A DNA stretch of 64,000 nucleotides from Escherichia phage RCIP0363: the sequence record PV464739.1. The stretch is one strand, 5' to 3'. Positions 49,962-51,301 of the stretch are shown in pieces. The notes below the pieces were generated by a model. It did not search any database. It was not told where the DNA came from and saw nothing but the letters and a program-made list of their open reading frames with translations. Every line of letters begins with the position of its first letter. The stretch's first letter is position 1. The position numbers and the translations under genes are program-made.

Positions 49962-50014
49962 TATCAAAAAGGTGAGCTAAATGCTTGCCTTTTCTTTTAT
50001 CAATACTTATACTC
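49962..50014 (+). promoter_or_regulatory. terminator-promoter element, copy 1
   Basis: AAAAAGGTGAGC-TAAAT-GCTTGCCTTTT forms a hairpin in RNA using G-U pairs. The -35 TTGCCT (49985-49990) lies in the hairpin's right arm; -10 TATACT at 50008-50013. Confidence 0.5.
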
Positions 50015-50045
50015 TTTTCATCAAGACTAACAAGCGAGGTGAATA

Positions 50046-50363
50046 ATGATTTACTTAGGCATCGACCAGGAACAAGACGAGCGGTTAGGAAGCGTGTTAA
50101 ACGTAGAATTAAACACAGCTGTACACGTCAAGCCTTGGCCAGAGGCGCACCCCGACGTAGTTGTACCCGTCGCACCTTGGACGCGTTACGTGGCCATTGA
50201 TAATGACGGCCTTGTCCATTGTTACTCAGAAAAGCCGACATACTTTGAAAAGTATCACCAATGGCTTATGACTGGATGGGCAAAGGTGCGCTGTTGCGGC
50301 GAAGTCGGTCTGGAAGGATGGGGCTTCGAGGCTAGTGAATCGTGTGTCGAGGTGCAATTATGA
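50046..50363 (+). CDS. hypothetical early protein
   Basis: ORF with SD gaggtga. Confidence 0.4.
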   Translation: MIYLGIDQEQDERLGSVLNVELNTAVHVKPWPEAHPDVVVPVAPWTRYVAIDNDGLVHCYSEKPTYFEKYHQWLMTGWAKVRCCGEVGLEGWGFEASESCVEVQL

Positions 50364-50578
50364 ATGCCGCGCTGGGTAAGCTGTCTTTCAACAAACGCAA
50401 TGAGCTGCGCATGGTGTCTCGTTTTCAGTTTTTATTGAATGCCATGTCAAGCGTTGCCATAACAATGCTTCGCGCCGATTGCCCTGCTGAAAAGCGTGAG
50501 ACTTTATTCAAACGCCACCAACAATTACGAAATGCTGCTTATAAACTGCAGCAATATGCTATGGAGTATGCAAAATGA
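50360..50578 (+). CDS. hypothetical early protein
   Basis: ATG 50360 overlapping the upstream stop. Confidence 0.4.
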   Translation: MNAALGKLSFNKRNELRMVSRFQFLLNAMSSVAITMLRADCPAEKRETLFKRHQQLRNAAYKLQQYAMEYAK

Positions 50579-50967
50579 GAATGAAGCGTTGCCCTTACTG
50601 CCACGATGTAATGCATCTTCCGCATGAAGAGTTCGTGCAGCATATGGCTAATTGTGATAAGAATCCTAATAGCGAAAGCCAGCTTGAAGAAAGAATGTTT
50701 CTGGTGTCATTCAAGTATTCAGCTTATGACACGCAACTGGCTTACGGTGCGAGCGGTGCACCAAGTGCTGTTTACAGACCGATGACATTGAGAAGTGACA
50801 TTGACTCGATGCAGCTTGCGGCCTGGATTAACGTTAAGGAAGGCATAACATGGCACTTTATCGCGCGCATCCAATCCCAGATTCTACAAATCAAGCGCGA
50901 ATACAACCGTGACATTACTGAAGTGAAGGTGCTGTCCATAACGCCAATGAATAAGGAGTTGCCGTGA
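50575..50967 (+). CDS. hypothetical protein with N-terminal Cys/His cluster
   Basis: CPYCHDVMH...H...C at the N-terminus. Confidence 0.4.
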   Translation: MRMKRCPYCHDVMHLPHEEFVQHMANCDKNPNSESQLEERMFLVSFKYSAYDTQLAYGASGAPSAVYRPMTLRSDIDSMQLAAWINVKEGITWHFIARIQSQILQIKREYNRDITEVKVLSITPMNKELP

Positions 50968-51224
50968 ACAAGGGTCCGATGACTAAGCTGGCCGTTGCCG
51001 CGCGGAAGCTTCGACAAGCCGTTAATGGGTCGCGGCCCGTGGCGTTAACACTCGACGATGCAAAGGCACTGGTAGAGCTACTCGACGAGCACAACCGACG
51101 CAAGAATCTGGAGAACACATTACGTTGGCGAGTCACTCCAGCAGGACGGGAGAGCGAGAAGAAAGCTTACTTGCGGCGTAAGCTAAGGTCAGTCGGCCTC
51201 CACGAAGAGGCGAAGAATATTTAA
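50964..51224 (+). CDS. hypothetical early protein
   Basis: ORF. Confidence 0.4.
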   Translation: MNKGPMTKLAVAARKLRQAVNGSRPVALTLDDAKALVELLDEHNRRKNLENTLRWRVTPAGRESEKKAYLRRKLRSVGLHEEAKNI

Positions 51225-51225
51225 T

Positions 51226-51274
51226 TCAAAAAGGTGAGCTAAATGCTTGCCTTTTTATTTACCTGTATTATACT
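51226..51274 (+). promoter_or_regulatory. terminator-promoter element, copy 2
   Basis: Same hairpin sequence as copy 1; -35 TTGCCT 51247-51252 and -10 TATACT 51269-51274. Confidence 0.5.
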
Positions 51275-51301
51275 TAGTTCATCAAGCAAAGGAGAGTGAT
51301 T

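Follow-up and report, generated by a model that had tools for sequence, protein, structure and literature searches.

Organization of the locus

The window, by which the whole analysed stretch of 64,000 nucleotides is meant, belongs to Escherichia phage RCIP0363, a Wifcevirus (E. coli myophage). Wifcevirus genomes have a size of about 68 kb, and Pbunavirus is a distant relation of the genus. Two intergenic blocks on the + strand, elements A and B, enclose four genes and share 30 identical nucleotides, TCAAAAAGGTGAGCTAAATGCTTGCCTTTT, at positions 49964-49993 and 51226-51255. This stretch consists of TC and the 28-nt string AAAAAGGTGAGCTAAATGCTTGCCTTTT, which occurs on the + strand exactly twice in the window (49966-49993 and 51228-51255); no match was obtained in 100 shuffles. 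The first-pass annotation had described two intergenic elements with a common hairpin, and the repeat is indeed exact and non-random. The genome-wide search for the element that it proposed returned these two copies and no third one in the window at up to three mismatches. Beyond the 30-nt identity, both elements contain TTATACT, TTCATCAAG and a Shine-Dalgarno sequence, and they are about 84% identical over 62 nt. The duplicated element is real and looks functional. A segmental duplication of genes was ruled out, because the repeat is limited to the intergenic block and the ORFs on either side of it are unrelated. The features of the locus are as follows.

49961-50045 (+): element A, the whole intergenic block from the stop codon of a 110-aa ORF (TGA, 49958-49960) to the ATG of a 105-aa ORF (50046)
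49966-49994 (+): hairpin A, with A-tract (49966-49970), GGTGAGC (49971-49977), TAAAT loop (49978-49982), GCTTGCC (49983-49989) and the first U's
T49973-G49987 and G49974-T49986 (+): the two G-U wobble pairs of hairpin A
49990-49998 (+): U-tract of putative terminator A, TTTTCTTTT, located in the promoter A spacer (about -30 to -22 with respect to the predicted start)
49985-50013 (+): predicted promoter A, with -35 TTGCCT (49985-49990), 17-nt spacer and -10 TATACT (50008-50013)
50018-50025 (+): invariant TCATCAAG block of A, with the start predicted at A50020, 7 nt past the -10, from geometry only
50036-50042 (+): Shine-Dalgarno sequence of A, GAGGTGA
50046-51224 (+): four-gene module between A and B (ORFs 50046-50363, 50360-50578, 50575-50967 and 50964-51224)
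51225-51301 (+): element B, the whole intergenic block from the TAA stop codon (51222-51224) to the ATG at 51302
51228-51256 (+): hairpin B, with A-tract (51228-51232), GGTGAGC (51233-51239), loop (51240-51244) and GCTTGCC (51245-51251)
51252-51260 (+): U-tract B, TTTTTATTT
51247-51274 (+): predicted promoter B, with -35 TTGCCT (51247-51252), 16-nt spacer and -10 TATACT (51269-51274)
51279-51286 (+): invariant TCATCAAG block of B, with the start predicted at A51281 from geometry only
51289-51294 (+): Shine-Dalgarno sequence of B, AAGGAG

The predicted 5'UTRs comprise 26 nt (A) and 21 nt (B), each with its Shine-Dalgarno sequence. Ten flanking proteins were compared with Pfam and PHROGs and matched families of unknown function only, so that they give no functional clue to the bracketed module. 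The best hit of an Rfam scan of positions 49700-51600 was MicX, whose 17.6 bits (E = 0.59) fall far short of the gathering threshold of 75 and correspond to chance. The GenBank records of phages WFC and WFH already annotate the hairpins, but neither the predicted promoter that overlaps them nor the duplication. The loop ATG that follows AAGGTGA misleads gene callers, and several GenBank records contain spurious or over-extended CDSs across the element.

The predicted promoter and its overlap with the hairpin

The promoter hexamers are TTGCCT-17-TATACT in A and TTGCCT-16-TATACT in B, with 9 of 12 matches to the consensus; the -35 hexamer agrees with TTGACA at four of six positions. As described in the first-pass annotation, the -35 is embedded in the right arm of the hairpin, TTGCCT lying within GCTTGCC in both copies. 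The predicted release site in the U-tract (-30 to -22) falls within the next promoter, so that the claimed physical overlap of the predicted terminator and promoter is borne out.

A general promoter scan was unspecific, with 48 sites in the window versus 31 in shuffles. The pattern TTGCCT-N15-18-TAWWMT gave six matches versus 0.35 expected, five of them intergenic and upstream of genes. TTGCCT with a proper -10 is also present at 3399-3427 (+), 54279-54306 (+) and 63876-63849 (-), the first and last of which are the head-operon and minus-strand promoters for which this -35 had been reported. A similar composite layout with unrelated sequence was found at 54260-54306 (+), 60225-60180 (-) and 63924-63849 (-). 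As this -35 type is also found ahead of a tail-fibre transcription unit and of the genes for head protease and capsid, the designation of the locus as an early operon is not established. The distant relative Pbunavirus 14-1 relies on host sigma70 promoters (PMC10914365).

The hairpin as a putative terminator

On the + strand the stem of A comprises 11 bp and that of B 12 bp, the U-G and G-U pairs included, in agreement with the pairing proposed before. The folding energies of the + strand RNA were -13.7 kcal/mol for A (z = -4.77) and -14.7 kcal/mol for B (z = -4.74), and none of 200 shuffles was as stable. The - strand RNA contains a 2x2 internal loop and folds less stably (-9.8 and -9.7 kcal/mol), because G-U pairing at the two non-Watson-Crick positions is possible on the + strand only. 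The statement that the hairpin pairs only on the plus transcript is therefore correct in that the + strand is favoured, but the - strand still gives a weaker hairpin, and the difference is a matter of degree.

The core stem, GGUGAGC/GCUUGCC, comprises 7 bp with two G-U pairs (-8.7 kcal/mol) and can be extended by A5/U4-5. Directly 3' of it comes a U-rich tract (UUUUCUUUU in A, UUUUUAUUU in B), with U at eight of the nine positions after the core stem. A d'Aubenton-Carafa-type score was positive for both copies, and the GenBank records of WFC and WFH carry ARNold-derived, predicted terminator features on both hairpins.

Each hairpin lies wholly upstream of its own predicted start site and can thus act on upstream transcripts only. 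The upstream stop codon is located 5-8 nt ahead of the hairpin, so that a terminating ribosome may hinder folding. With a core stem of only -8.7 kcal/mol that begins 8-10 nt past this stop codon, termination is probably partial.

Conservation among Wifcevirus genomes

Exactly two copies of the element are present in each of the 28 Wifcevirus genomes in the database. Variable columns were counted in 22 related genomes with two copies each (44 copies). No column varied in the hexamers (0/24) or in TCATCAAG (0/16), and one varied in the stems (1/28); the counts were 2/10 for the loops, 7/33 for the spacers and 3/8 for the discriminator. The -35, the -10 and the 8 nt of TCATCAAG are thus invariant in all 22 genomes, and variation is found mainly in the loop, the spacer and the four bases past the -10. 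That all seven variable columns of spacer and hexamers should fall in the spacer has a probability of P = 0.016. About one third of the columns are variable in the adjacent coding DNA.

The stems are invariant in 42 of the 44 copies. The only substitution replaces G by T in the left stem arm of copy B (SP13 and F13); it is uncompensated and weakens the core stem from -8.7 to -2.0 kcal/mol, which suggests that termination at B is dispensable, at least in the SP13/F13 lineage. As the stem is otherwise invariant, it shows no covariation, and the conservation of its right arm is uninformative on the hairpin, since this arm is constrained by the -35 anyway.

Pattern scans of IMG/VR, a primase-anchored search for the locus and one scan each of metagenome and genome contigs returned near-identical Wifcevirus copies and chance or unrelated promoters only. 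Unrelated contigs with GCTTGCCTTTT...GGTATACT promoters had no match in the phage collection. Phage records outside Wifcevirus gave weak, chance-like partial matches only (38 nt, about 87%, jumbo phages). No match to the element was found in 5,426 complete E. coli genomes, and an origin from the host is unsupported.

The comparative data support the predicted promoter and hairpin anatomy. The evidence is stronger for the predicted promoter than for the putative terminator, because the stem shows no covariation and one natural substitution in it is uncompensated.

Interpretation of the elements

The best explanation is that A and B are paralogous copies of one composite terminator-promoter cassette, and we consider this probable. 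Each cassette would combine four signals: (i) an intrinsic terminator or attenuator acting on transcripts that come in from the preceding genes; (ii) a promoter of the host sigma70 type, with the 3' arm of the hairpin as its -35 (TTGCCT) and the U-tract of the terminator as its spacer; (iii) the conserved start-site block TCATCAAG; and (iv) a short 5'UTR with the Shine-Dalgarno sequence for the next gene. Past the primase/helicase genes, the long run of small + strand genes would be divided by the cassettes into separate units. The first unit would extend from about 50020 to about 51260 and comprise four ORFs, and the second from about 51281 to about 54280, where a further hairpin with a T-run and a TTGCCT promoter (54260-54306) would end it. 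A promoter of its own would drive each unit anew, and the terminator would curb read-through that might otherwise pile up and occlude the promoter. As a by-product, the repeated block and its left arm, which resembles a ribosome-binding site, could provide short homologies for the gain and loss of modules. Termination, re-initiation, their functional coupling, the start sites and the temporal class are what we infer for these elements. A search of the literature yielded no transcript 5' or 3' ends for any Wifcevirus.

Compatible with this explanation, A and B might in addition serve as recombination linkers of the PeSL (promoter-early stem-loop) type that swap modules of ORFans, which we regard as possible but doubtful. 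A 943-bp contig, L237, from the draft assembly of Xanthomonas pisi DSM 18956 (NZ_JPLE01000312.1) contains a single A/B hybrid element and lacks the four-gene module. With 42.6% GC and 93-98% identity to Wifcevirus DNA, this contig is a contaminant of the assembly. The flank of A, the hairpin, an A-type spacer and TATACTC are joined in it to the B-type AGTTCATCAAG, 5'UTR and downstream gene (hybrid junction, TATACTCAGTTCATCAAGCAAAGGAG). Its nearest relative, L233, has both copies, 1262 nt apart, and the hybrid suggests a possible route for loss or movement of the ORFan module. Gene-sized indels also adjoin the elements. An extra gene of 195 nt, flanked by a 21-nt direct repeat of the left end of the element, lies 5' of A in WFC, Bas100, SP13 and F13; CWP003 has a gene for 82 aa inserted immediately 3' of A, and RCIP0319 has three genes inserted immediately 5' of B. 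Among 18 relatives, 17 depart from the window in the slot immediately 3' of B, where four alternative first genes occur.

However, most gene junctions between 47 and 54 kb have indels with junction repeats of 3-27 nt, some of them without promoter or terminator, so that the association with indels is not specific to A and B. Loss of the A-B module was seen in none of 28 isolates, and no further A/B or B/A hybrid was found in IMG/VR or among phage isolates. The sole hybrid comes from one short contig of an assembly with contamination, and its crossover lies in identity blocks of 7-9 nt outside the 30-nt identical core.

Somewhat more tentative is a joint reading, according to which A and B would be PeSL-type mobile linkers outside the T4 group and RNA polymerase released at the hairpin would be recaptured at the overlapping promoter. 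Recombination between A and B, or between a sub-motif and a look-alike ribosome-binding site, would then cut out self-expressing ORFan modules, for example the 1.26-kb unit of four genes, and insert them again, and this exchange would drive hyperplasticity in the 47-54 kb region of Wifcevirus. A release site inside the next promoter could permit recapture of the polymerase and hence true coupling of termination and re-initiation.

It is unlikely that the promoter alone is functional and that the inverted repeat is a DNA-level feature, such as an operator for a dimeric regulator of phage or host over the -35, an UP-like A-tract or a leftover ribosome-binding site. That 42 of 44 copies have the same stem sequence exceeds structural need and is in keeping with such a feature, as is the viability of the natural stem-breaking variant of SP13/F13. 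The left arm AAGGTGA resembles a ribosome-binding site; the same 21 nt provide the stop codon and the binding site of the extra gene in WFC, Bas100, SP13 and F13, and AAAAAG is found just upstream of the -35 at other promoters of the window too. Nevertheless, both departures from the dyad are G-T/T-G, which leaves RNA pairing intact solely on the coding strand; this holds for the two copies in every genome and would be expected about once in 36 cases if mismatches were random. In addition, the U-rich tract follows the stem directly, ARNold called terminators on both hairpins, and no other copy of either half-site of a supposed regulator is present in the window.

It is very unlikely that the hairpin acts as RNA without terminating, whether by 3'-end protection, as a processing site of a polycistronic transcript or by sequestering AAGGUGA and the AUG of the loop. 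In favour of this reading, the fold of the + strand is stable, and AAGGTGA-N5-ATG in the hairpin opens a frame of 17-21 codons, annotated by gene callers in several relatives, which terminates at the next gene or is fused to it. However, the short frame is not kept, a 1-nt length difference leading to an early stop, a stop at the ATG or a fusion, and the U-tract would have no explanation. A leader peptide starting at the loop ATG was ruled out because its frame is not conserved among the genomes, and an RNase III site because a stem of 12 bp is too short.

If the cassettes are confirmed, the first map of transcription units would be available for the Wifcevirus ORFan region, as well as an insulated expression slot for phage engineering, since the site right after B naturally takes four different genes. 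Wifcevirus is a little-studied genus of very fast-replicating coliphages that are of interest for O157 biocontrol.

Comparison with known systems

The loop and the 3' arm contain AAATGCTTG, a sequence similar to the Mot box of T4 MotA middle promoters. The T4 Mot box, (a/t)(a/t)(a/t)TGCTT(t/c)A, lies at -30 and is required 11-13 nt upstream of the -10. In A, TGCTT is located at 49982-49986 and the -10 at 50008, a gap of about 19-21 nt, and a Mot box was ruled out on this spacing. No MotA/AsiA system is known in Wifcevirus.

With canonical intrinsic terminators the elements share the stem-loop, the U-tract, the upstream A-tract that can extend the stem and the position just past a stop codon. 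In contrast to these terminators, the core is short (7 bp with two G-U pairs, -8.7 kcal/mol) and lies in a promoter, and its 3' arm is doubly constrained.

The closest precedent is provided by the PeSL cassettes of T4-like phages (Arbiol et al. 2010, PMC2839356; Comeau et al. 2014, PMC4122927), for which both promoter and terminator activity have been demonstrated experimentally (PMC2839356). The first-pass annotation mentioned neither this precedent nor the association with gene-sized indels. Like PeSLs, A and B are intergenic composites in which the stop codon of the preceding gene and an A/T-rich stretch come before a stem-loop terminator or attenuator (putative in A and B) and a sigma70-like promoter, with a Shine-Dalgarno sequence and ATG to follow, and they are repeated among small ORFans that differ between close relatives, with indels adjoining. 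PST and nt-1 have PeSLs whose stem-loop immediately precedes the promoter; that of nt-1 takes the form A3-4G3-loop-C3T3-4 with a -35 of TTGYVH, and G-T pairs have been reported in PeSL stems (PMC2839356, PMC4122927). The TTGCCT of A and B fits this -35.

Unlike the PeSL phages, Wifcevirus is not a T4-like myovirus, and the likeness is one of architecture only, with promoter, terminator and mini-circle activities putative for A and B. Two sequence-related copies are present per genome versus dozens of PeSLs, the stem of A and B overlaps the -35 itself, and the indels of the region are not confined to the two elements. By analogy, the element resembles a PeSL-like design and would as such be largely expected. 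If this is confirmed, composite terminator-promoter cassettes would not be peculiar to T4-like phages but would represent a convergent solution.

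Setting of the elements

Wifcevirus phages of Escherichia and Shigella (among them WFC, WFH, FEC19, ECML-117, Mansfield, RCIP0319 and Bas98-101) were 88 to 95% identical to the window over 48 to 53 kb. These are myoviruses of ~68 kb, distantly related to Pseudomonas Pbunavirus, and terminal repeats of ~3.7 kb were reported for WFC and WFH (PMC6563267; PMC11990801). PHROG matches located the following genes:

3.4-10.7 kb, head protease, major capsid and tail sheath genes
42.8-46.8 kb, primase/helicase genes
60.2-62.6 kb, minus strand, tail-fibre gene

The intergenic elements A (49961-50045) and B (51225-51301) bracket a four-gene module within a plus-strand series of small ORFs of unknown function, 3' of the primase genes. 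The description of a duplicated hairpin-promoter element in the first-pass annotation was accurate, as the exact repeat, the plus-strand fold and the hexamers were all found. The 28-mer AAAAAGGTGAGCTAAATGCTTGCCTTTT occurred exactly twice in the window (49966 and 51228, both plus strand) and in none of its shuffles; the genome-wide search proposed in that annotation gave these two plus-strand copies and no third one in the window with up to three mismatches. Identity between A and B is continuous over 30 nt. Further 3' both contain TTATACT, TTCATCAAG and a Shine-Dalgarno sequence, while spacer and 5'UTR differ; overall they are about 84% identical over 62 nt. The flanking ORFs are unrelated, so the duplication is limited to the intergenic block. 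The elements are probably paralogous composite cassettes of terminator (attenuator), promoter and UTR, read by the host sigma70 RNA polymerase.

Predicted promoters

49985-50013, plus strand, promoter A, TTGCCT-17-TATACT
51247-51274, plus strand, promoter B, TTGCCT-16-TATACT

The -35 is embedded in the right arm of the hairpin as had been claimed, TTGCCT lying within the 3' arm GCTTGCC. From geometry, starts were predicted 7 nt past the -10 at A50020 and A51281, each within the shared TCATCAAG. TTGCCT with a proper -10 was present at six sites in the window (0.35 expected), including 3399 (plus strand, 5' of the head protease/capsid genes), 54279 (plus) and 63876 (minus); the reuse of this -35 at the first and last of these, noticed earlier, was thus borne out. 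The same type of -35 also precedes structural genes and so does not mark A and B as 'early'.

The hexamer pair of A and B also occurs as TTGCCT-18-TATACT at 5337-5366 (plus), inside ORF 4851-5489 and ~140 nt 5' of the major head protein gene (5504), where it is a candidate internal promoter. Around the predicted start (50018-50025, 51279-51286), TCATCAAG was invariant in 44 of 44 copies, and TATACT-N4-TCATCAAG behind good -35 boxes was also seen in unrelated viral/metagenome contigs (L076, two sites; L235). The block could act on promoter escape, 5'-end stability or pairing of the Shine-Dalgarno region. A second promoter family, GAAAAAGTGCTTTACTT...TATAAT, was observed in divergent orientation at ~57.0-57.7 kb (57044-57071, minus; 57692-57720, plus; also 57116-57143, plus); its prefix AAAAAG(T)GCTT resembles the A/B sequence minus the hairpin insert.

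The literature yielded no transcript mapping of any Wifcevirus. Pbunavirus 14-1 depends on the RNA polymerase of its host, and its transcriptome has 26 sigma70-like promoters and 14 terminators (PMC10914365).

Hairpins

The plus-strand RNA forms a stem of 11 bp (A) or 12 bp (B), U-G and G-U pairs included, with fold energies of -13.7 and -14.7 kcal/mol (z about -4.8). Pairing through two G-U wobbles on the plus transcript was therefore confirmed, but not its restriction to that transcript: the minus-strand RNA still folds at -9.8 (A) and -9.7 (B) kcal/mol, more weakly because the wobbles turn into A-C/C-A mismatches. On the 3' side of the 7-bp core stem (-8.7 kcal/mol), A has UUUUCUUUU and B has UUUUUAUUU. 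The U-tract, the expected release site, covers approximately positions -30 to -22 of the promoter that follows. From the end of the stop codon it is 5 nt (A) and 3 nt (B) to the A-tract, and 10 and 8 nt to the core stem; given the coupling of translation and termination, a terminating ribosome could hinder folding at such short distances. The GenBank records of WFC and WFH carry features over both hairpins ('putative transcriptional terminator, -10.10'), predicted with ARNold (PMC6563267), and no promoter is annotated there.

Both hairpins contain AAGGTGA-N5-ATG (49970-49983, 51232-51245), a stretch resembling a ribosome-binding site with a start codon in the loop. Its frame of 17 to 21 codons ends near the ATG of the next gene and is fused to that gene in some genomes. 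CDSs annotated from or across the hairpin, such as Bas99_0075, Bas98_0076, Bas101_0078 and kaset_CDS0079 (loci L006, L008, L009, L223, L225), are probably artefacts.

Gene gain and loss

The window was compared with 18 relatives for indels. Upstream of A, an additional 195-nt gene was present in WFC, Bas100, SP13 and F13 between 21-nt direct repeats AAATGAATATCAAAAAGGTGA, which consist of the upstream stop codon and the element's left end; the ribosome-binding site of the additional gene is AAGGTGA. In CWP003 an 82-aa gene is inserted right behind A, and in RCIP0319 three additional genes immediately precede B. The slot 3' of B differed from the window in 17 of the 18, with four alternative first genes (N-termini MSTEVHN, MSYDERF, MSTEAMK, MRIKPAT). 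Gene-sized indels with junction repeats of 3 to 27 nt, formed by stop-start overlaps and ribosome-binding sites, also occurred at most other junctions between 47 and 54 kb, and against the relatives L001-L010 and L221-L228 whole genes were present or absent at nearly every junction. This ORFan region is generally hyperplastic, independently of A and B. Since similar indels occur at most other junctions there, the association with the elements is no more than suggestive and is not peculiar to them.

One scan of genome contigs found an A/B hybrid, NZ_JPLE01000312.1 (943 bp, Xanthomonas pisi draft assembly). With 42.6% GC and 93 to 98% identity to Wifcevirus DNA it is evidently a contaminant of that assembly. 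It lacks the four-gene module and has a single element: A-type left flank, hairpin, A-type spacer and TATACTC, then B-type AGTTCATCAAGCAAAGGAG and the MSTEAMK gene. The switch from A-type to B-type sequence falls between identity blocks of 7 nt and 9 nt, outside the 30-nt identical core; k-mer collapse by the assembler would have yielded a B-type spacer and so does not account for the junction. In the contig most closely related to the hybrid, metagenome contig OFPW01000013.1, both elements are present at a distance of 1262 nt. The junction, known from this one short contig, was absent from isolate genomes and IMG/VR contigs. Recombination between promoter-early stem-loop (PeSL) cassettes of T4-like phages leads to deletion or circularisation of the ORFs between them (PMC2839356; PMC4122927), and it is possible, if somewhat doubtful, that A and B additionally serve as such linkers; this would not exclude the cassette reading.

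Other repeats in the window were a 99-nt direct repeat of 71% identity (3119-3217 and 54651-54749) with ACGGATGAT iterons ahead of a very AT-rich stretch, and inverted ATCCGTATC iterons at 3241-3360; they could mark an origin or the boundary of a terminal repeat, or form a regulator array. ORFs 51717-52220 and 53371-53790 have in common the C-terminal motif W..GG.NPVPGK.V (52049-52102 and 53616-53669), hence a paralogous domain. Further short families (55063-56266; 58242-58318; 58425-58512) comprise CCACTAnnnnATTTGCACTATAA four times, TCGCGTAAGTCNTTGTTTTATANAG twice and a 45-nt tandem pair.

Conservation

The element matched at exactly two places in each of 28 of 28 Wifcevirus records, among which A was 95 to 100% identical. 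Outside Wifcevirus only partial matches at chance level were obtained, and complete E. coli genomes gave no match.

Variable columns in an alignment of A and B from 22 genomes or contigs, the two copies pooled
-35 and -10 hexamers: 0 of 24
TCATCAAG: 0 of 16
Stems: 1 of 28
Loops: 2 of 10
Spacers: 7 of 33
Four bases past the -10: 3 of 8

About one third of columns varied in adjacent coding DNA. The probability that all seven variable columns of the spacer/hexamer set are spacer columns is 0.016. Loop alleles were TAAAT, TATAT and TAAGT, and the A-tract of copy A had 4 to 6 A. Only one stem change was seen: SP13 and F13, two nearly identical phages, have GGTGATC for GGTGAGC in copy B. Nothing in the opposite arm compensates for it, and the core stem is left at -2.0 kcal/mol.

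This pattern of columns is the one predicted for a promoter plus hairpin. Support is stronger for the promoter than for the terminator, because the -35 constrains the 3' arm anyway and covariation is absent. A promoter combined with a non-terminating operator, or with a relic of a ribosome-binding site, is unlikely. Pairing in RNA is favoured by the two positions that break dyad symmetry: on the sense strand they are G-T/T-G, in A as well as B and in every genome. The hairpin lies wholly 5' of its own predicted start and can thus fold only in transcripts arriving from upstream. A role as an RNA-stabilising or sequestering hairpin is very improbable.

Interpretation and comparison with known systems

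Judged by sequence, the interpretation in the first-pass annotation appears largely right; the 'coupling' of termination and re-initiation is so far geometric only. As terminator-promoter cassettes, A and B would divide the ORFan array into self-driven units of about 50020-51260 and about 51281-54280. The records of two related phages already mark the terminators, and for the design itself there is a well-documented precedent.

Three further junctions in the window show a similar layout, in which a terminator hairpin adjoins or overlaps the next -35, in unrelated sequence:

54260-54306, plus strand, GGCCGATTGGCC, T-run, TTGCCT; conserved in ECO71P1 and FEC19 with -35 TTGCTT
60225-60180, minus strand, AAGGCGCTGAAAAGCGCCTT, -35 TTTACT overlapping the stem; UTR TAACAAGTGAGG resembles that of element A
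63924-63849, minus strand, same layout

In an unrelated phage group (IMG/VR contigs L162, L168, L191, L206), without a match in the isolate phage collection, two to three promoters ATAYCGCTTGCCTTTT-N13-GGTATACT with palindromic spacers were seen; like RB49-type PeSLs, they place a stem-loop between -35 and -10.

By analogy, the closest precedent of A and B is the PeSL cassette, a small terminator/promoter composite of AT-rich stretch, stem-loop, sigma70-like promoter, Shine-Dalgarno sequence and ATG, which clusters in hyperplastic ORFan regions and has promoter and terminator activity in reporter assays (PMC2839356; PMC4122927). That A and B are mobile regulatory linkers beyond T4-like phages, with polymerase recycling, is a rather doubtful extension. 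The nt-1 type of PeSL (A3-4G3-loop-C3T3-4, -35 TTGYVH) is strikingly like A and B in form, but the phage carrying A and B is not T4-like, has only two sequence-related copies per genome, and its stem overlaps the -35 itself.
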